DNA of 34,561 nucleotides, taken from an uncultured Pseudomonadota bacterium. GTDB taxonomy: Bacteria; UBA10199; JACPAL01; GCA-016699445. Positions 1,608 to 11,074 of the stretch are shown here, piece after piece. The stretch is from NCBI GenBank assembly GCA_964637745.1, contig CAZWYB010000002.1, positions 1 to 34,561 of the forward strand, in the 5' to 3' direction. The notes under the pieces are model-generated. The model saw nothing but the letters and a program-made list of their open reading frames with translations, did not search any database and had not been told where the DNA came from. Position 1 is the first letter of the stretch. Each line of letters starts with the position of its first letter. Both the position numbers and the translations under genes were made by a program.

Positions 1608-3569
1608 ATGATCTCCTTCGCTATGATAAAAAAAGTCGATCGCTGGAAAGAGTCTCTGCTCAATTATTTCTTATCCGACTTGGGGATGGATTTGAATCAG
1701 ACCATCTCCCTTCCGCGCGTCTTTTTGAGGTGCGCCTCCCACTACCACACCAAGGTCGCGCTGACGGAGAAGCAGAACGGGCGTTACCAGGGCATCACCT
1801 ACGCCCAACTCGTGGATCAGACAAAAGCCTTCGCCTCGGCCTTGATCGACGTCGGAGTCGACCTGCACGATCGCGTCGCCATCTTTCTCAAGAATTCGCC
1901 CGCCTGGGTCATCTCCGATTTCGGAACGATGTTCGCGGGCGGAGCGACGGTGCCGATCTACGAGACTCTGGTCCCTTCGGCCATCCGCCACATCCTGAAA
2001 GACTCGGGGGCAGTCGGAATCGTGGTCGAGGACAAGGCTCAATTCGAAAAGATCAAGGAGATCTGGCCGGATCTCCCGAGCCTCAAATTCGTCGTCCTTC
2101 GCAAACCGGAAGGCATGACCCTCAAGAAAGATAAAATCCTAAGCTTCGAAGATTTTCTCAAGAAGGGTCAGGAGGCGAACAAGAAAAACCCCTCCGCGGT
2201 CAACAAGCGGCTGGACGAGTTGAAGAGGGACGACATCGCCAGCATCGTCTATACGAGCGGAACAACGGGGGACCCGAAGGGCGTCATGCTGACCCATCGG
2301 AATTTTCTCTCAAACGTCTACGGCGTCACCTCGGTCACCGACGTCAACTCACACGACACAATGCTGTCGATCCTGCCGCTCTCCCATGTCTTCGAACGGA
2401 CGATCGGCTACTATGTTCCGATCCTCTTCGGCGCAACCATCGCCTACGCGGAGAGCATCGACACGGTGGCCAAGAACCTGCAGGAGGTCCGTCCGACGAT
2501 CTGCTGCGCGGTCCCACGCCTCTTTGAAAAGATCTACACGCGGATGGTCAAGAACATGGAGGCTGCGAGCCCGATCAAGAAGCGTCTTTTCAACTGGGCC
2601 CTGTCCGTGGGTCGCCAGGTCTGGGACGACCAGCTCCAAGAACGGAAGGGTACGGCCAAGGATCGACGGCAACGCCATCGGCCGGAAGACCGAAACAGCG
2701 ACTCGGACATCGTCATCAGAAATCCCGGCATGAGACTCGCCTACGCCATGGCGGACAAACTCGTATACAGCAAGCTCCGCCAATCCATGGGCGGACGCCT
2801 TCGCTTCTTCGTCTCGGGGGGCGCGCCGCTCTCTCCGGAACTCATCGATTTCTTCCGAAACCTCAATATCGCAATCTACGAAGGCTACGGCCTCACGGAA
2901 TCCAGCCCCGTGGTCAGCTTCAATTTCGCCAACAAATTCAAGTCCGGCACGGTGGGTAAGCTTCTGCCGCATGTTCAGGTCAGGCTTTCCGGCGAAGGGG
3001 AGATTTTAGTGAAGGGTCCGAACGTCATGATGGGCTATTTCAACAACCCGAAGGCGACGGTCGAATCGGTCGATTCCGAAGGATGGCTCCACACGGGGGA
3101 CGTGGGCGTCTTCGACGACGACAACTATCTCCGCATCACCGACCGCATCAAGGAACTGATCGTGATGAGCAACGGAAAGAACGTCGCGCCTTTGCCGATC
3201 GAGAACAAGCTGACGCAATCGCCCTTGGTCGCCAACGCCATGGTGATCGGCAACAACCGCAAATTCATCGCGGCCCTCCTCTTCCCGAGCCTCCCGGAAC
3301 TCCAGGCGTTGGGGAAAAGCCTGGGGATCAAATCGACCAAGTTCGAAGATCTTTGCAAGGACAAGAAAATCCGCCAACACTTCGAAAAACTGGTGGAGGA
3401 CGTGAACGAGGATCTATCCCGCTACGAGCAGGTAAAGACCTTCGAGCTCGTCCCCGAGGAACTGACCGTCGAGGGCGGGGAGATCACCCCCACCCTCAAA
3501 CTCAAGCGGCGGATTCTGGAGAAGAAGTTCTCAAGCCTGATCGAGGGGATGTTCCGGGAGAAGGAATAG
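1608..3569 (+). CDS. Long-chain acyl-CoA synthetase / AMP-dependent ligase (FadD-like)
   Basis: A 653-aa ORF with the AMP-binding signature YTSGTTGDPKGV, plus GYGLTE, HTGD and a C-terminal PTLKLKR motif. The start is uncertain: ATG 1608 comes from the track, and ATG 1686 (MDLNQT...) is equally plausible. Confidence 0.85.
   Translation: MISFAMIKKVDRWKESLLNYFLSDLGMDLNQTISLPRVFLRCASHYHTKVALTEKQNGRYQGITYAQLVDQTKAFASALIDVGVDLHDRVAIFLKNSPAWVISDFGTMFAGGATVPIYETLVPSAIRHILKDSGAVGIVVEDKAQFEKIKEIWPDLPSLKFVVLRKPEGMTLKKDKILSFEDFLKKGQEANKKNPSAVNKRLDELKRDDIASIVYTSGTTGDPKGVMLTHRNFLSNVYGVTSVTDVNSHDTMLSILPLSHVFERTIGYYVPILFGATIAYAESIDTVAKNLQEVRPTICCAVPRLFEKIYTRMVKNMEAASPIKKRLFNWALSVGRQVWDDQLQERKGTAKDRRQRHRPEDRNSDSDIVIRNPGMRLAYAMADKLVYSKLRQSMGGRLRFFVSGGAPLSPELIDFFRNLNIAIYEGYGLTESSPVVSFNFANKFKSGTVGKLLPHVQVRLSGEGEILVKGPNVMMGYFNNPKATVESVDSEGWLHTGDVGVFDDDNYLRITDRIKELIVMSNGKNVAPLPIENKLTQSPLVANAMVIGNNRKFIAALLFPSLPELQALGKSLGIKSTKFEDLCKDKKIRQHFEKLVEDVNEDLSRYEQVKTFELVPEELTVEGGEITPTLKLKRRILEKKFSSLIEGMFREKE
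3489..3569 (+). repeat. Direct repeat copy A: the functional last 26 codons plus stop of the acyl-CoA ligase gene
   Basis: It aligns without gaps to 4803-4883 (71 of 81 nt identical by my hand alignment). Confidence 0.9.
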
Positions 3570-3576
3570 AATTCCT

Positions 3577-4716
3577 CTACAAACTCCAGAGTTCCTCTAG
3601 AAATGTCTTAACGGGGAGTATTTCGACTTTTCCGACCTTTCGCGGCGCTCGATCCATAGAAACGATGATCTGACGTTTCGGCCTTATGTCTTCCGAAAGG
3701 GCATTGAGCCCCCGAAAATGTCGTTCCGAAACATTTTCACTCCCCTTCACTTCGATCGCCAGCTTATCTCCAACAACGAAATCCACTTCAAAACCTGAAG
3801 TCGACCGCCAAAACGCGAGCGGATCGGATATCTTTCGATAATCCGCCCACGCTCTGAGCTCCGTAAATACGAAATGCTCCAGCGTCTTTCCGAAAAGGTC
3901 CGTCTTCGGAGCGATCCCCTTTCTTCCCGCGAGAACATTACAAACACCGACGTCAAAAAAATAGAATTTAGAAGTCATGATGGCTTTTCGTTTACGAGAC
4001 CGGGTGAACGGCTCAAGAAGACATCCGATCAAGGTATCTTGAAGAATCTGAAAATACTCCGAGATGGTTCGGGGAGGCACCCCGGCGTCGGATGCCATAT
4101 TCGCAAAATTGACCAGTTCCGCATTTGAAAGGGCTGCCGTTTGAAGAAATCTTGAAAAATTTTCAATCTTACGCGTCAGCCCCTCCGCCTGAATCTCTTC
4201 CCTCAGATAGCTCCCCACATAAGCTTTCAGATCCTCTTCCGGATCATTCGAATTGTAGATGGATGGCAGAGATCCATAGTTCAGAATCTTCATCAAATCA
4301 TAGTGAGGGATTTCCGCCGTAACGAGCGGAAAAAGATGGCGCGTCCAGGCTCTCCCCCCCAGGAGATTCGCTCCACCTCTCTTAAGCTTGCGAGCGCTGC
4401 TCCCCGTCAGAATGAAATGGAACCCCTTTTCTTCGATGAGATGATGAACCTCATCCAGAAGCACCGGGAGTTTTTGAATTTCATCGATAATGACCGGGAT
4501 TCCGACCTTGGGAGGCCGAGCAAGCAGTTCCTCCCGAATCATTTGAGGGCGCTGACTGACACGGAGGAACAAATCCGACAGCAACAGATTATAAAACGGG
4601 GATTTCGGAAACGTCTCTTTCAATAAATGTGTCTTTCCCGTCTGACGGGGGCCAAAGACGAAAAGACTTCTTTTCCGAACGTCCTCTTTGAGATTCAGGA
4701 GACGCTGAAAGCGCAT
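3577..4716 (-). CDS. AAA+ ATPase, AAA_14/DUF4143-type
   Basis: Walker A (GPRQTGKTHLL) and Walker B (VIIDEIQKL) are present, and the C-terminal part resembles the DUF4143 region of this family. The track ORF starts at TTG 4752. ATG 4716 (MRFQRLLN...) was chosen as the more typical N-terminus. Confidence 0.75.
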   Translation of the reverse strand: MRFQRLLNLKEDVRKRSLFVFGPRQTGKTHLLKETFPKSPFYNLLLSDLFLRVSQRPQMIREELLARPPKVGIPVIIDEIQKLPVLLDEVHHLIEEKGFHFILTGSSARKLKRGGANLLGGRAWTRHLFPLVTAEIPHYDLMKILNYGSLPSIYNSNDPEEDLKAYVGSYLREEIQAEGLTRKIENFSRFLQTAALSNAELVNFANMASDAGVPPRTISEYFQILQDTLIGCLLEPFTRSRKRKAIMTSKFYFFDVGVCNVLAGRKGIAPKTDLFGKTLEHFVFTELRAWADYRKISDPLAFWRSTSGFEVDFVVGDKLAIEVKGSENVSERHFRGLNALSEDIRPKRQIIVSMDRAPRKVGKVEILPVKTFLEELWSL

Positions 4717-4802
4717 GGAAAGGACGTTAGCAGGGTCTATTTTTAATAGCAATAGTTATGCTGATTATCATGATATTCAGCGTAGCTATGTCGTTCCGGA
4801 AA

Positions 4803-4883
4803 CCCACCCTCAAACTCAAGCGCCGGATCTTGGAAAAGAAGTTCTCCAGCCTGATCGAGGGGATGTTTGGGGAGAAGGAGTGA
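4803..4883 (+). pseudogene. Orphan duplicate of the acyl-CoA ligase 3-prime end (encodes PTLKLKRRILEKKFSSLIEGMFGEKE-stop)
   Basis: This is direct repeat copy B of 3489-3569. Upstream similarity to the ligase gene stops at 4803. Only a 41-codon ORF (ATG 4758) covers it. Confidence 0.8.
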
Positions 4884-4887
4884 CTTC

Positions 4888-7014
4888 TTAACGTGGTATT
4901 TTTTCGAATGAAGGGCACCCCCATCCGACCGGAATCGAGACCGAGTGTCCGCTGTAATCAACGCCCGAGAACGTACACGTCAGATCCGTATCCACGGCAT
5001 TCCCCTTGATGTAAAAACCCTGAGGAGCATAAGAGTCTGGGTTGAAGCCCGTTGGGCTCGTCCTGTCGATCCATTCGACCATCTCAAAACTGTGCCCCTT
5101 GCAATCCACGTGGAACTCCTTGAGGTTCTGAACCCGAATGCCCTGAGCAAAATCGGTGGAGTCGTAGGTCCAACTGCCGGAACCGGCTTCAAAAGTTCCG
5201 GGATGATAGTTTGTTCCATGGCAATATTTGTCATAAGATCCATCGATAAATTTAAATGCCGGGTTATCCGCATCGCTATTATAAGGAGCCTCAATGCGAT
5301 TAGAGTAAATCATGGGAGCCCCTATGATTCTTACCTGCCAAGCCCAATGGTTATGATCACGTACGGCTCCATTGACGGGAATCATTTCAGAATGCCCCGA
5401 GAGAGGAATGTCAAGGAAGCTGGTCCAGTCGTTGAACATGACATAGGTGATCCCCGCCGTGGTCTCACCGCTCAAGACGGTCACTGCGTGGATGGTCTCT
5501 TTGATATCAAAGGGCCGACCTACTTTAACCACAAAATTATGGGTCTCCGGACCCGTTCCCCAAGTGCCGTTCTTGCAAATGTCGTCTCCGCAAATCAATT
5601 CAGTGTAAGGAGCACCCAGCGAAAGCTTGAAGATACTTTTCGCCGTATTGTGCATTCCATATCCTTGCACATTCATGGTGATCGGATCCGTGTCCGAATA
5701 GTCGCAGGCGTAAGACGCGTGGCCGCTGCCGTCTTTCCTAAAGTCATTGGTCCCGCTTTCTACGCAGCTCTTTCCTCCGATCACAGCTTCTGAAGTCGCA
5801 TTCACATAATCAAAACTCACATGAATCTTGCTGTCGACCTTGATCATCGCCTTCACATCCGTCGTAATCTGAACGTGATCCGCCACGACCTGATCACAGA
5901 CGGACCTGGACGTCCCGTCCTCATCCACCACCACCAGGCACACATCGCCGCTGTGGACCAAACTCCGCGTGTAGATCTCTCCCGATGAAGCCGGCAGATC
6001 GATGCGGCAGTCCGGATTCGGCTCGTCCGAGGCCGGCGTCAGGCCACTGATTATGGCGCTCGCCGCCGGATTGGTCATCTTCTTGTAACCGGAATACTTT
6101 CCGGAAGAAGGCGATGAGGCCGGCGTCGCGTAGGGAGCCGCCGGTTTGCGCCACGTAAAATCGCAGTCGTCATCGGTGGCCGTGTTGCCGTTATCGCAGA
6201 CTTTCCCTTCCAGATATTTTTCGTATTCGACATGAACGGGGGTCGAGGGATTCGGATCGATCTCGACGCCATTCGCGGCAGTCACGAGATACCGTTTGTC
6301 GAGGGTCAACTTGCAACCTGTATCCGTCGCCGTTCGATTGAAAAGATTTCCGGCCAGATAAATCGCCTTGACCTTGTCGTCCGTCTTCCATGTGATCTTC
6401 ACCGTTTGTTGTTTAGAGGCCCCGGCCATATCTTCGACTTTGAGATCGAGAGGTGTTGGAGCCGGAGCTCCGGTTGTGCCGGTGGCGCCTGTCGATCCCG
6501 TATCGCCGGTGGCCCCCGTGGAACCCGTCGAACCATCGGCAGCGGGTGTTTCGGAACTTCCCGAGTCGCCCGTGGGTGCGATCACGTCGCTGTCCGTTGC
6601 GCCGGCGCTTCCGGCGCCGGCCATCAGGACTCTCTTCACGGTCATCTTAGAAATCAGAATCGCGTTGCCGGATCCGCCTTGCGACACCACGCGGACATCC
6701 ATCTGATTGCCACTGATCATGGGGAAACTGGGCATGACGAACGTAACGTTGTCGGAACTGCCGTCGTATTGAGAAGCCACCGGAATGCCATGTGTGTTGC
6801 CGGTTCCTTCGATGGAAACGGTATCCCCATCTTCGAACGAGAGACCGGACACCGAACAGGTCACCGTGTCGCCCATCGCCACTGGATTCGGAGTGCAGTT
6901 CCCACCGGCGGCCGATCCCGTCGCTGAAGAGCCTCCTTTAGAACCTTTAGAAGAAGAGCAGGCAACCGTAAGCGTGGAAGCGAGGATGAATAGGCCTATG
7001 ATAATACGTTTCAT
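4888..7014 (-). CDS. Secreted lipoprotein, paralog F of a cysteine-rich family (function unknown)
   Basis: ATG 7014 has GGGGGA 6 nt upstream. The N-terminus has a signal peptide plus lipobox (MKRIIIGLFILASTLTVAC). It shares FNRTATDTGCKLTLDKRYLVT, GTNYH, STDFAQGIRVQ and the C-terminal CTFSGVDYSG...GWGC motifs with the 11075-13210 protein. Confidence 0.8.
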   Translation of the reverse strand: MKRIIIGLFILASTLTVACSSSKGSKGGSSATGSAAGGNCTPNPVAMGDTVTCSVSGLSFEDGDTVSIEGTGNTHGIPVASQYDGSSDNVTFVMPSFPMISGNQMDVRVVSQGGSGNAILISKMTVKRVLMAGAGSAGATDSDVIAPTGDSGSSETPAADGSTGSTGATGDTGSTGATGTTGAPAPTPLDLKVEDMAGASKQQTVKITWKTDDKVKAIYLAGNLFNRTATDTGCKLTLDKRYLVTAANGVEIDPNPSTPVHVEYEKYLEGKVCDNGNTATDDDCDFTWRKPAAPYATPASSPSSGKYSGYKKMTNPAASAIISGLTPASDEPNPDCRIDLPASSGEIYTRSLVHSGDVCLVVVDEDGTSRSVCDQVVADHVQITTDVKAMIKVDSKIHVSFDYVNATSEAVIGGKSCVESGTNDFRKDGSGHASYACDYSDTDPITMNVQGYGMHNTAKSIFKLSLGAPYTELICGDDICKNGTWGTGPETHNFVVKVGRPFDIKETIHAVTVLSGETTAGITYVMFNDWTSFLDIPLSGHSEMIPVNGAVRDHNHWAWQVRIIGAPMIYSNRIEAPYNSDADNPAFKFIDGSYDKYCHGTNYHPGTFEAGSGSWTYDSTDFAQGIRVQNLKEFHVDCKGHSFEMVEWIDRTSPTGFNPDSYAPQGFYIKGNAVDTDLTCTFSGVDYSGHSVSIPVGWGCPSFEKIPR
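6463..6534 (-). repeat. Gly-X-Thr triplet run (8 triplets, GSTGSTGATGDTGSTGATGTTGAP) inside paralog F
   Basis: Read directly from the translation. The DNA has period-9 and period-3 low complexity. Confidence 0.7.
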
Positions 7015-7120
7015 GAGTCCCCCTTGTGTCGGGAGACTTAAATAGCAAGTACCATGCCATGACTCACAAAAAACATACATTTATAAGTATTTAATTTTAT
7101 TAACTATTTTATATGTAAGC

Positions 7121-7177: not shown

Positions 7178-8506
7178 TTACATGGGGCATTTGGGAGAAC
7201 CCGCCGGGGCCCAGGCATTGATACCGTTGGTCAGAGCTTGCGCCCCCGTCAGATCGACGTTCATCCAATAGAGCTGGCCCTTGGGGGCTGGGTTCTGCAC
7301 CATCGGGTTTCCCGTGGGAACGATGTAGAAAATCTTACGGCCGTCGCAGGACCACGATGGAGAAACGGCATCCGACTGGGTTTCCTGACAATTCTGGAGC
7401 TTGGCGGTCGTCAGGTCCGAAGGACTCGGGACGGAAAGGTCGCAGACATCGATGCGATAGATCGTGTTGTTCACATTGTTGGGATCCTTCTTGGAAACGG
7501 AATAAGCCACTTTCCCACCATAGGGTGAGAAGGACGGTTCGGTATGCGTAATGAGGTCATTGGGACCGGGATTGGATATTGGATTTGGCGTGAGGTTGAA
7601 AGCATCATCTAAGGTGCCGTCGATCTTATTGATCCAAACATCGATTTCCGAGTTCGCGCTCTGACTGTGCCCCATGGAAAAAAGGATCAAGTTATACAAA
7701 GGATCCGCAGGATTCGTCACGGGAGACGCGGCCACGCCGAAATAATATTCGTTCGGCGTATTGTTCGTCTTTCCCGCGTCCCGCACGACCGTCGACGCAT
7801 TCCCATCGATCGTAAATTTTCTTAAAGTGCAACCGCCGGTGCTGTCATCGGCACTGGCGAGCACGTGGGCGTTATCCGCAAGAGGGACCGCAAAAAATGT
7901 GATCAAAGAATTTTGGACGGATCCCCACGCCGTCGGTTTCCCGATCGGAGCGGTCAAAGAGTTTTTAATATCCAACGAGGCCACGCTAAATCCGTTTTGT
8001 CCGTTGATCTGAACCGAGGCCGAATAAAAGAGTTTCGACGCGTCTGGTGTCATGGCGAGAGTATTCCAGAACGGAAGAGCCATACCGCCGTTTGCGATAA
8101 AGTTTGACAACGGCTTCGGTGCGGATCCTTTCGTATCGCCCCAAAAAAGATTGGCGATCGTCGTGTTGTTGTTCGCGGGATCGACCTTCACGAAGGCGTA
8201 TTCATAATACGAAGGAGCGGGGGGCTGCGTGGTTCCCGATGCTCCGGTGCTACCCGTGTCGCCCGTCGTGCCTGTATCTCCTGAGCCGCCGGTGCCGGTG
8301 GGAACGATTGCCGTCCCCCCTGAGCCTCCCGTCGCTCCCGTCGTCCCTTTCGCACCCGATGCGCCGCTCTTGTTCCCTCCGGCCGTGATGGTATTGCCGG
8401 CGTTCTTGGAACCGCCGCAACCGGAGACGGAGATCATCAGCCCTTGAAAGCCCAGGGCGATTGCAAGCAACAAGACCACGGAGGTTTTCGTTCGATTTGT
8501 TTTCAT
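7178..8506 (-). CDS. TolB/PD40-like beta-propeller lipoprotein
   Basis: ATG 8506 has AAGGAG upstream. A signal peptide ends in the lipobox VSGC. It is followed by a Gly/Thr-rich linker and then PD40-like blades (PSFSPYGGKVAYSV, SPSWSCDGRKIFYIV). Confidence 0.8.
   Translation of the reverse strand: MKTNRTKTSVVLLLAIALGFQGLMISVSGCGGSKNAGNTITAGGNKSGASGAKGTTGATGGSGGTAIVPTGTGGSGDTGTTGDTGSTGASGTTQPPAPSYYEYAFVKVDPANNNTTIANLFWGDTKGSAPKPLSNFIANGGMALPFWNTLAMTPDASKLFYSASVQINGQNGFSVASLDIKNSLTAPIGKPTAWGSVQNSLITFFAVPLADNAHVLASADDSTGGCTLRKFTIDGNASTVVRDAGKTNNTPNEYYFGVAASPVTNPADPLYNLILFSMGHSQSANSEIDVWINKIDGTLDDAFNLTPNPISNPGPNDLITHTEPSFSPYGGKVAYSVSKKDPNNVNNTIYRIDVCDLSVPSPSDLTTAKLQNCQETQSDAVSPSWSCDGRKIFYIVPTGNPMVQNPAPKGQLYWMNVDLTGAQALTNGINAWAPAGSPKCPM
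8228..8368 (-). repeat. Gly/Thr-rich low-complexity linker with Gly-X-Thr triplets (GDTGTTGDTGSTGASGTT)
   Basis: Read from the translation of the TolB-like ORF. Its composition resembles the linker of paralog F. Confidence 0.6.
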
Positions 8507-8530: not shown

Positions 8531-10948
8531 TTATGGGGCTTGCCAATTGCTGGATGCCGCCTGGTGACAGAATCCAGGCCATGCGTTTCTCCCCTCGCAA
8601 GGCGTGCAATTCCAAGGGATCGTTTGGTCCTTGGACTTTCCATCAAAAAATGTGGCTGTAATCGTGCAAGATCCCGTGTGCTCTCCGGCCGATTCACCTT
8701 TCAGAAGATAAGCCGTCTTTTCGAACATGTCCGCCTTATTGGTCAAATCGCAAGTGGACGCTCCTCCCTTATAGGTGGAGCAAATCTCGGTCTTACCATC
8801 CACCGAATTGAGGGACAGGAAAGCACCATTTTGCTTCCCGCAATCGATCGTCAATCCCGTCACGCCCTTCAAGTTCACCGCATAACTGAAGTCGACATAT
8901 TTATGATGATAGACAGGCAGGTCGTCACAGCTCCCAAAGGTGCTCTCCATGAATTTATCGCATGGGTCGTCAGCGTAGGCATCCCCATAGCACTGATTGT
9001 TTGCCCCCACCTTCGCCGTGGAATCCAGTTCGAAGGCCTCGGCCTTGGACGGATCCGGCGTCCAATCCCACGTCTTCACCCAATCGGGGTCGGTGACATC
9101 GTAAACGGACATCTGTTCCGTCTTGCGGAGGCCGAAGATAAAATGCATGCAGTTCGGCTGCAGAAAAAGCTTCGTGCGGTATTTGGCGAACCCCTGAGTC
9201 TGATCGACGACCCATCCGTCGGCGGAAGGATTTTTAATGAATTCGCTTTCGCTGGCTTCCTTGTAGGAACTGCAGGAGTAGTCCTGCTTGCCGCCGGGCC
9301 CTCCGTTATTGAAATCGAACCAGGCGTCGACCCACGGCACGTGATCCGTACTTCCGAACTGCGACCATTGATTGGTCTGGGGATCCTGCTTCCAGAGACT
9401 GACGTCGCGGGTCACGGACCCCGTCATGTCGACAAGCCCGCCGTCGCCGCAATGTTGATCTGCGTTCTGACACACCTGGGTATAGGTGACATGGCCTTGA
9501 CCATCAACACTCGCCTTATAGGTCCCGCCGGGAATCAAAGTCGCGATCGCTTTGGTCAAAGAGACCTTGAGGGAGGCTTTGGCGTCTTCTTTCGAGGTAA
9601 AACCGGGACACGTCACCGTATAGACCTGGTCCGATTTCTCGAGCGGCGCCGAGAAGGAGCACTCCACATCGTAGGCCGTGTTGCCGCCGGTGGGAAAAGG
9701 CGTCAGCTTGCAGAACTGCCCCTTGTCACCCTCCACGGTCGCCGGCTTTGACTGAGCGGCGCAGGCAAAATGGATGAAGACCGACTGCTTGTAGGGATGA
9801 GGCGACTTGGAAAGCTCGATCGTCGGGTCCGTCGCAAATTTTGTCGCCTTGATCTCCACGTCTTGGGTCTTCACCGTCCAGTTTTGGTCGCCCTTCGCCC
9901 GGTAGGCGATCGTGTACATCGCCTTGTTTTGGGCGTTCAAGGCCTTCGGATCGATCTTCGTGTAAAAGAAATCGGCGGGCTTGTTCAAACCCTGCTGCTG
10001 GTCGACCACATCCACGCGGCACAGGGGCACGGGAGGATTGTTGGGTATTTGGGAGCAGGCCGAGCCGTCCTTGCACTCCATCCCGTTGGCGTAGATCCCC
10101 CACTGGCTCCAAGACGGCATGTTGGGCGTGATGACAGTCTTGCCGTCCTGCGTGACCGCCATGCTGAGACAATTCTGATATTGCTTGTTCGGATCGGGCA
10201 CGGAGACGAACGGCCCATAAACATAGGCCTTGAAGACCGCTCCCTGGCACGACCATTTCATCTGCACGACGCCGTCGCTGTTGGACACCACGTTGGTCCC
10301 GCTGACGTCGCACGTCGGAGGTCCCGCGGGCTGCGGCGGCTGGGGCGGCGTGACGCACGTCCCGCCCTGACAGGTCTGTCCGGCCGCGCAATCGGAGTCC
10401 TGTGTGCATTGAGGCGGAGGATTGTTTTGCGCGAGGCATTGTCCGTTGACGCATGTCTTTCCCGAGGCGCAGTTCGAATTGTCCACGCACTCGGGCGTCG
10501 GCTGGGGATTCGGAGTCGGCGGCGGCGTCCCTCCCCCAGCCCCCGTTCCTCCGGAGGATCCCGTCACGGGGTCCAAATGGAATTTGCAAAGATTTTTCTG
10601 ATTTCGGGTGCCGGCTCCACAGGTGACGATATAATCGCCCGCCGGCATGCCCGGAACCGTCGGACTGACGACCCCCCCTTGGGCATCGCCGCATTGGAAG
10701 GCGTAACTGTCGTTGGCACCTTGAGCCGGATGAAAAAAGCCGGTGCAGTCTTGATCGCAGGCGCCGATTTGAACCTGGATCACCCCGCCACGGGCCACGG
10801 GGCCGGTCGCATAACAATCGGACAAACCGCTCAGATCTTTGGACGCCGCTCCGCCTTGCGAGTTCGCCCCTGGCTTACTCGCACATCCCCCCAAACACCC
10901 CAAAGACACGAACAGACAGAGAACGGCCGCAATAACATTGCGCGTCAT
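8531..10948 (-). CDS. Cysteine-rich lipoprotein, paralog E (function unknown)
   Basis: ATG 10948 has GGGGGGAG upstream. The lipobox is LGGC. The N-terminal domain (ASKDLSGLSDC...CKFHLDPV) is about half identical to that of 11075-13210. It has two CxxDxxCxxGxxCxxGxC modules (10352-10492) and the C-terminal motif CTITATFFDGKSKDQTIPWNC. Confidence 0.85.
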   Translation of the reverse strand: MTRNVIAAVLCLFVSLGCLGGCASKPGANSQGGAASKDLSGLSDCYATGPVARGGVIQVQIGACDQDCTGFFHPAQGANDSYAFQCGDAQGGVVSPTVPGMPAGDYIVTCGAGTRNQKNLCKFHLDPVTGSSGGTGAGGGTPPPTPNPQPTPECVDNSNCASGKTCVNGQCLAQNNPPPQCTQDSDCAAGQTCQGGTCVTPPQPPQPAGPPTCDVSGTNVVSNSDGVVQMKWSCQGAVFKAYVYGPFVSVPDPNKQYQNCLSMAVTQDGKTVITPNMPSWSQWGIYANGMECKDGSACSQIPNNPPVPLCRVDVVDQQQGLNKPADFFYTKIDPKALNAQNKAMYTIAYRAKGDQNWTVKTQDVEIKATKFATDPTIELSKSPHPYKQSVFIHFACAAQSKPATVEGDKGQFCKLTPFPTGGNTAYDVECSFSAPLEKSDQVYTVTCPGFTSKEDAKASLKVSLTKAIATLIPGGTYKASVDGQGHVTYTQVCQNADQHCGDGGLVDMTGSVTRDVSLWKQDPQTNQWSQFGSTDHVPWVDAWFDFNNGGPGGKQDYSCSSYKEASESEFIKNPSADGWVVDQTQGFAKYRTKLFLQPNCMHFIFGLRKTEQMSVYDVTDPDWVKTWDWTPDPSKAEAFELDSTAKVGANNQCYGDAYADDPCDKFMESTFGSCDDLPVYHHKYVDFSYAVNLKGVTGLTIDCGKQNGAFLSLNSVDGKTEICSTYKGGASTCDLTNKADMFEKTAYLLKGESAGEHTGSCTITATFFDGKSKDQTIPWNCTPCEGRNAWPGFCHQAASSNWQAP

Positions 10949-11074
10949 GAGAAACTCCCCCCGGCTTGTGTTGAATAGGAATTATCGGCGAACTCACCGA
11001 CACCGGTTTCGTTTCTAATGGACATTTAAACAAATCTTATCATGAAAATGAGGACTTGCGGGTCTTTATTCCGT

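Follow-up and report, generated by a model that had tools for sequence, protein, structure and literature searches.

A one-gene PDC-S01-family cassette between two allelic ends of an acyl-CoA ligase gene, with probable entry by homology-anchored recombination

The window analyzed here is a stretch of 34,561 nucleotides (nt), contig C2 (CAZWYB010000002.1) of a metagenome-assembled genome (MAG) of an uncultured Pseudomonadota bacterium (GCA_964637745.1, referred to as G000), which comprises 2.5 Mb in 299 contigs and is 83% complete. Within it, a gene encoding an AAA+ ATPase with a DUF4143 domain lies between the intact end of a long-chain acyl-CoA ligase gene and a second, orphaned copy of the same 81-nt gene end. 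The segment at 3570–4802 is probably a recombinase-free, one-gene cassette that was brought in with the ligase end of a related species by homology-anchored recombination, the native end being displaced downstream. The features concerned are the following, in window coordinates.

1608..3569, plus strand: long-chain acyl-CoA ligase gene, 653 amino acids (aa), intact, target of the 3′-end duplication (from Pfam)
3489..3569, plus strand: repeat copy A, the last 26 codons of the ligase and its TAG stop, within the intact gene
3570..3576, no strand: spacer of 7 nt separating the stop codons of the ligase and the convergent ATPase gene, the 3′ boundary of the cassette
3577..4716, minus strand: gene for an AAA+ ATPase/winged helix-turn-helix/PD-(D/E)xK nuclease, 379 aa, ATG at 4716
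4717..4802, minus strand: 5′ region of the cassette, 86 nt, with two overlapping palindromes (inverted repeat I1 at 4752–4789)
4748..4762: palindrome AGCAATAGTTATGCT
4760..4781: palindrome GCTGATTATCATGATATTCAGC
4803..4883, plus strand: repeat copy B, the orphaned ligase 3′ end with a TGA stop, followed by native sequence
4888..7080, minus strand: convergent gene of 730 aa without a Pfam match

The ligase is recognized by its Pfam matches to AMP-binding (5.8e-87) and AMP-binding_C_3 (6.6e-16). Copy B lies at an offset of 1314 nt from copy A, which leaves an insert of 1233 nt. The two copies differ at 10 of 81 nt (88% identity). Eight sense codons are affected, seven of them synonymously (cgg/cgc, att/atc, ctg/ttg, gag/gaa, tca/tcc, ttc/ttt, and gaa/gag) and one with a change of R to G, and the stop codon is TAG in copy A and TGA in copy B. 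An earlier note on this DNA had described the two copies with the same positions, number of differences, and codon and stop details, and every one of these figures is correct. The similarity ends abruptly at both repeat edges, beyond which the flanks are unrelated, and it is cassette sequence, not ligase sequence, that directly precedes copy B. Beyond copies A and B, no further occurrence of the 81-mer was found in the 2.5-Mb MAG. When the two flanks of the ATPase gene were aligned with each other, a score of 119 was obtained, compared with a maximum of 26 after shuffling. In the presumed empty site, the stop of the 730-aa gene would be located 4 nt from the ligase stop.

The start of the repeat coincides with a conserved ligase motif, PTLKLKRR, where 20 consecutive bases are identical between the two alleles; judging from this identity, the block is a plausible crossover or junction point. 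A 41-codon open reading frame (ORF; window 4759–4883, plus strand) starts in the cassette promoter region and runs in frame through copy B (MLIIMIFSVAMSFRK-PTLKLK...). This frame is most likely accidental.

The nature of the differences between copies A and B is the main evidence on how they arose. Under a random null, in which 10 substitutions were placed on the 81-mer with kappa values of 1–4, the probability of at most one nonsynonymous codon was 4e-5 to 1.8e-4, and it was lower still if the stop was required to remain a stop. A more lenient null, in which the intact copy changes only synonymously and the orphan changes neutrally at an equal rate, leads to an expectation of 64% nonsynonymous changes, and the probability of at most one of eight is then 0.0046. 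The ratio of the proportions of nonsynonymous and synonymous differences (pN/pS) is 0.04, with a pS of 0.40. The bias toward synonymous sites noticed earlier has thus withstood both realignment and the two nulls. It suggests that both copies diverged while coding, i.e., that they represent two alleles of the ligase 3′ end, as had been proposed in the earlier note, and it speaks against a duplication on the spot after which the orphan decayed neutrally.

With regard to direction, copy A contains codons seldom used in this genome (ATT, 0.21; TCA, 0.07), whereas copy B has the preferred ones (ATC, 0.74; TCC, 0.31), and the summed log2(A/B) of codon usage is −3.7. This gives a weak hint that copy A is the incoming, foreign end and copy B the displaced native one. 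The ligase ends of relatives are equidistant from A and B and are of no help in telling which copy is native.

The cassette gene is assigned by matches to AAA_14 (1.5e-19; 70.7 bits, cut-off 27) and DUF4143 (2.1e-29; 102.7 bits, cut-off 28.1) in Pfam and to seven PDC-S01 models of PADLOC (PDLC04790, 8.9e-51). Its longest ORF begins with TTG at 4752, and homologs align from M13. In an alignment with 34 homologs, G27, K28, and D78-E79 of the Walker A (GPRQTGKT) and Walker B (IIDE) motifs are invariant and T26 is nearly so, and the nuclease signature E310-V311-D312...E322-x-K324 is also invariant; DUF4143 has been listed as a PD-(D/E)XK nuclease domain (PMC3424549). Based on these motifs and model matches, the gene is a predicted member of PDC-S01 (AAA_14+DUF4143, COG1373), a candidate anti-phage defense family. 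The AlphaFold model has a pLDDT of 90.5 and a pTM of 0.91. In a fold search with it, the matches were all generic AAA+/STAND/initiator ATPases (RuvB, CED-4/Apaf-1, RFC, Orc1/Cdc6, and DnaA; TM ≤0.39), without a full-length structural analogue, and no sequence match to the ATPase was present in PDB or NCBIfam.

No other convincing gene is present within the insert according to the ORF list and Pfam, and neither a tRNA nor a terminator-like site was found at the cassette. In accordance with the earlier note, no integrase or other recombinase is encoded in the cassette, and the sole tyrosine recombinase of the MAG is located on contig C104. On the 5′ side of the gene, there is a conserved palindrome block (...ATATCATGATAATCAGC...), in many cases with TTGACA ahead of it: the block ...GCT(a/g)tATATCATGATAATCAGC... 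after TTGACA also occurs upstream of homologs in other phyla (L068, L070, L072, L073, L158, and L160), which indicates that it belongs to the cassette. It is probably the cassette's own, autoregulatory operator. Two DUF4143 paralogs that lack flanking repeats have their own pairs of tandem palindromic elements of 23–30 nt upstream of the start (L003, 2638–2690; L005, 1416–1477). Each cassette seems to carry a private operator.

The nearest genomes belong to other genera of the same family, with ligase identities of 71–75% aa, and the best ligase match (76% aa) is on a metagenome contig. A class II aminoacyl-tRNA synthetase gene and the ligase form a pair that is conserved in relatives (ligase orthologs of 71–76% aa). 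The ATPase is absent from the 0.9–1.5 kb downstream of the four nearest ligase orthologs (L007, L008, L009, and L026; 71–76% aa), which shows that it is not an ancestral neighbor of the ligase and bears out what the earlier note had supposed. The genes downstream of the ligase differ among L007, L008, and L009; those seen in relatives encode a cytochrome c peroxidase, a PP2C-like phosphatase, an unknown protein, and an OmpA-family protein, and the 730-aa gene was not found in the 0.9–1.5 kb downstream of the ligase in any relative. The closest homologs of the ATPase (67–74% aa) come from Planctomycetia, Thermodesulfobacteriota, Omnitrophota, and Elusimicrobiota. The cassette is probably foreign DNA, and we infer that it arrived with a foreign ligase end.

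The arrangement recurs within the same MAG. For all ORFs of at least 150 aa, the 500-nt flanks were aligned to each other, and 25 of the 1431 ORFs reached a flank score of at least 32, the window cassette ranking fourth. Flanking repeats were detected at three of five testable DUF4143 genes vs. 22 of 1426 other ORFs (1.5%; Fisher P=4.6e-5). One further DUF4143 cassette, on contig C16, is located between an M20 peptidase gene and astA, and its 26-nt repeat is taken from the end of the peptidase gene and includes the stop codon; three codons differ between the copies, each of them synonymously (AGA/CGT, TTT/TTC, and TGC/TGT). In three sister genomes (G002, G003, and G005), the M20 gene is directly followed by astA, which represents an empty site at the level of gene order. 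The other, on contig C23 (G000:C23:6483-8388; L148 3484-5389), follows a radical-SAM methylthiotransferase gene and has a 240-nt repeat with 89% identity. Here, the intact gene takes its last 11 codons from cassette sequence, and the orphan has a different tail and stop, which are probably native. The single ortholog is followed by a different gene, so synteny gives no empty-site evidence in this case.

Two genes outside the DUF4143 family have the same footprint. On contig C45 (4514–5292), a gene for a predicted membrane protein of 203 aa (4598–5209) is tightly bracketed by a repeat of 75 nt that corresponds to the 3′ end of its upstream neighbor, a 384-aa gene, and the orphan shows four synonymous and three nonsynonymous changes (one of them to a stop) and an indel. 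On contig C62 (10454–11086), the 3′ end of a 141-aa gene is present in two 81-nt copies (86% identity, four synonymous and seven nonsynonymous changes), and a thioesterase-like gene of 160 aa (10527–11009, minus strand) is enclosed by them. Such single-gene inserts with displaced gene ends suggest a general, host-driven route.

Similar loci were also found far beyond this MAG, so that the recurrence of DUF4143 cassettes bracketed by host-gene 3′ ends, which the earlier note had proposed to look for, is now evident in the MAG, in a related complete genome, and across phyla. Among homolog loci from many phyla (GTDB genomes), 9 of 74 testable ones scored above all 600 mismatched-pair controls, with flank repeats of 15–82 nt. 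Tight cases share a layout of repeat, 70–100 nt, gene, 7–16 nt, and repeat; the 3′ gap is 7–16 nt at the window cassette, C16, L068, and L078, and 30 nt at C23. At L068, a gene end including its stop is duplicated, with three synonymous changes and one conservative change, and the pooled ratio of synonymous to nonsynonymous changes over the window, C16, and L068 is 13:2 (P=9e-5). The repeat copies are near-identical at L113 (81/82) and L143 (59/61). From site to site, the repeats are unrelated in sequence and vary in length (26, 81, and 240 nt within this MAG), and neither a shared target motif nor terminal inverted repeats were seen by eye among 13 repeat pairs. The short contigs L158–L160 (1.3–1.4 kb), considered as possible cassette circles, were rejected because they lack terminal repeats.

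Genomes of the same order (G001, G004, G008, G009, G011, and G012; 1.7–2.9 Mb) contain 22–26 DUF4143 genes each, which for genomes of this small size is a very large, though non-clonal, family. In G004, which is complete on a single contig of 2.75 Mb, tight repeats of 28–62 nt that score above every mismatched control flank 5 of 21 copies. All 21 copies are only 34–57% identical to their nearest paralog; they appear to have been acquired independently rather than multiplied within the genome, and recent within-genome copying was rejected on this ground. One of the G004 cassettes (L191) is inserted at coaC|coaB; the congener G001 shows the empty site there precisely, the 43–46-nt target being present once. 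Another G004 cassette has 79% DNA identity to a G001 cassette that occupies a different site, and the homology begins 65 nt upstream of the start and ceases 1 nt beyond the stop. Since it is confined to promoter and gene, the mobile unit would be a bare promoter plus gene.

At L207 (G004:C1:1045660-1057861), two repeat-flanked DUF4143 cassettes are less than 6 kb apart. The syntenic stretch of G001 (C7, ~139.2–140.6 kb) contains a DUF4143-domain match, and a homolog of one of the two cassettes is present elsewhere in G001 (C5) without a repeat. L207 may be a local insertion hotspot.

In the scheme proposed here, PDC-S01-family cassettes would enter genomes without an integrase or transposase, and entry would leave a long direct repeat of variable length derived from the target, in most cases the end of a gene or the junction of two genes, with both neighboring genes staying intact. 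For the window, the cassette would already have been joined to the ligase end of a related species (~88% nt identity in this segment) and transferred together with this donor end. Fixation may then have occurred by recombination anchored in ligase homology, in the form of a single (Campbell-type) crossover of a circle or, alternatively, homology-facilitated illegitimate recombination of a linear piece. The ligase would now be completed by copy A, the incoming end, and the native end (copy B) would have been shifted 1314 nt downstream as an orphan. As for the donor, direction, and enzymes involved, all of which we infer, host recombination is favored and the cassette nuclease may help. Host recombination acting on cargo is preferred because the inserts on C45 and C62 share the footprint and there is no sign of recent copying within genomes, while a self-promoted mechanism is kept alive by the strong enrichment around the nuclease family and the sharp unit ends.

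Several other explanations were weighed. The ATPase-nuclease could be its own mobility enzyme. The cassette would then be an autonomous element of one gene whose product cuts targets and promotes its insertion or homing, and the repeat would be a by-product or a portable homology site. This is a rather unlikely account, even though flanking repeats are far commoner at DUF4143 genes than at others, unit boundaries are sharp, the nuclease and ATPase motifs are intact, relatives have 22–26 copies per 1.7–2.9-Mb genome, and double-strand breakage has been proposed as a common cause for restriction-modification (RM) units (PMC2853133). The low identity among the 21 copies of G004 gives no sign of recent copying, unrelated genes in the MAG (for a membrane protein and a thioesterase-like protein) share the footprint, and neither terminal inverted repeats nor a common target motif were seen. 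An extension of it, in which the captured host gene end acts as a portable "att", the element is excised as a circle, and the circle re-enters the same gene in a related species, would account for heteroallelic repeats such as those of the window, and is held to be unlikely to the same degree. A different possibility is an in situ insertion accompanied by duplication of a long stretch of the target, 81 nt before the ligase stop, which would have produced identical copies that diverged in place. This is the published footprint of RM units (PMC2853133), and it fits the near-identical copies of L113 and L143 as well as L191, where lineage-specific bases are common to both copies. For the window, however, it is clearly improbable: decay of the orphan predicts ~64% nonsynonymous changes, but only one in eight was observed, with the stop retained and a pS of 0.40, and C16 and L068 show a similar synonymous bias.

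It is very improbable that the cassette is a remnant or satellite of an integrase-driven element that restored the ligase 3′ end (attL/attR) and was mobilized in trans or lost its integrase. A direct repeat at a 3′ end, with an element-borne copy completing the gene, is the classic layout of such elements, and the 20-nt identical block at the repeat start could act as a core. However, there is no integrase in the cassette, the MAG's one tyrosine recombinase lies on a different contig, the repeat differs in sequence and length with each cassette (26, 81, and 240 nt here; 28–82 nt elsewhere), and the insert is a bare promoter and gene with 7 nt to spare. An assembly artefact, i.e., a contig that is a chimera of two co-occurring strains, is hardly credible. 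The MAG is indeed fragmented and incomplete, and the copies resemble alleles of two strains; yet the junction between the cassette and copy B is unique, identity between the copies never runs beyond 20 consecutive bases, which is below usual assembly k-mers, and the architecture also occurs in a complete genome of one contig as well as in many independent assemblies.

Several observations weigh against homology-anchored entry with a foreign ligase end, or against its generality. The longest identical blocks between copies A and B are only 20 nt, short for RecA-type crossing-over inside the repeat, so a long anchor further upstream in the ligase must be assumed. No ligase above 76% aa was found in metagenome contigs or among 5.8e9 protein clusters, no ATPase above 74% aa in the database search, and no species-level empty site or donor allele for the window ligase. 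At L191, both copies carry the same G004-specific bases, so this event looks like an on-the-spot duplication. The synonymous bias is also not general, as C23 has 10 synonymous and 14 nonsynonymous changes with a frameshift, and the ratios are 2:3 at L207a and 1:1 at L195. The absence of the bias at some loci and the in situ type of L191 imply more than one route or age class. The argument on direction from codon usage is based on seven codons, and the background for the enrichment is one genome, with flank lengths slightly different from those used for G004. GC content is 48% in the cassette vs. 57% in the ligase, but the dip extends into the 3′ half of the downstream gene; composition is therefore weak evidence of foreignness and was set aside as proof of it.

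Beyond the cassette, GC-rich 27-nt repeat units (TCCGGTxxxGCCGGTGGCxCCxGTxGA-like) are present at window 6469–6573 and 8240–8344. They are common to the neighboring minus-strand genes of 730 and 442 aa and may encode low-complexity linker repeats of large secreted or surface proteins.

PDC-S01 has been reported as the fourth most common "defense" system of prokaryotes, with several inter-domain crossings (PMC12988326). It is treated there as a defense candidate, validation being pending for most PDCs (PMC12988326). The window gene resembles the PADLOC PDC-S01 family, or COG1373 "predicted AAA+ ATPase", in that all family models are matched and the ATPase and nuclease motifs are kept. How PDC-S01 genes spread is not described in the papers found. 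With homology-anchored entry as the preferred reading, the window would be a readable record of one route taken by this family, namely a promoter-plus-gene unit without a recombinase that travels with a foreign end of the neighboring gene.

Insertion with long target duplication is known for RM units (Nobusato et al. 2000, as recounted in Furuta, Abe & Kobayashi 2010, PMC2853133), including single-gene cases such as mcrA (PMC2853133). The cassettes described here are similar in several respects: the unit encodes a nuclease and no transposase or integrase, the direct repeats are variable, longer than 30 bp, derived from the target, and often at a gene 3′ end, and relatives have empty sites with a single target, as is seen here for L191 and G001. 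With an 81-nt repeat and a 1233-nt insert, the window is within the size limits used by Furuta and colleagues in 2010 (repeat >30 bp, insert <20 kb), and, as they also specified, the insert neither contains nor adjoins another mobility gene. Unlike in RM units, the cargo is one AAA+/PD-(D/E)xK gene without a methyltransferase, and, unlike in a fresh duplication, the copies of the window are two alleles with 40% of synonymous sites differing. Mobility of the DUF4143 family is absent from the literature found on RM long target duplication and from the papers found that name DUF4143. The present observations extend a 25-year-old, unexplained observation on RM genes to a very large gene family. 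In addition, two processes with an identical footprint, duplication of the target on the spot and end displacement anchored by homology, are separated at the ligase locus, and a simple test to distinguish them from sequence is offered by the synonymous bias between the copies of a repeat.

Displacement of 3′ ends is also known from Rhs, contact-dependent inhibition, and type VI secretion system (T6SS) effector-immunity loci, where it has been ascribed to homology-facilitated illegitimate recombination (Kirchberger et al. 2017, PMC5361080). In those loci, as proposed for the window, incoming DNA is anchored by homology and provides a new gene end and cargo, and the old end is orphaned downstream without a dedicated recombinase. 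The window has the corresponding features, i.e., a complete gene upstream, an orphan end downstream of the cargo, and allelic ends. The difference is that Rhs/T6SS loci gain a new toxin domain and an immunity gene, whereas here the protein tail stays the same and the cargo is unrelated to the ligase. On the other hand, integrase-driven integrative elements and cis-mobilizable elements resemble the cassette in the direct repeat of a 3′ end that flanks the insert and in the element-side copy that keeps the gene intact, but they differ in that the cassette has no integrase, no common att core, a repeat that varies from site to site, and only 1.2 kb with one gene. The earlier note had left the choice between an att-restoring element and homology-facilitated recombination as the way in which a foreign ligase end was acquired; of the two analogies, homology-facilitated recombination fits better and the att-restoring integrase element fits worse.

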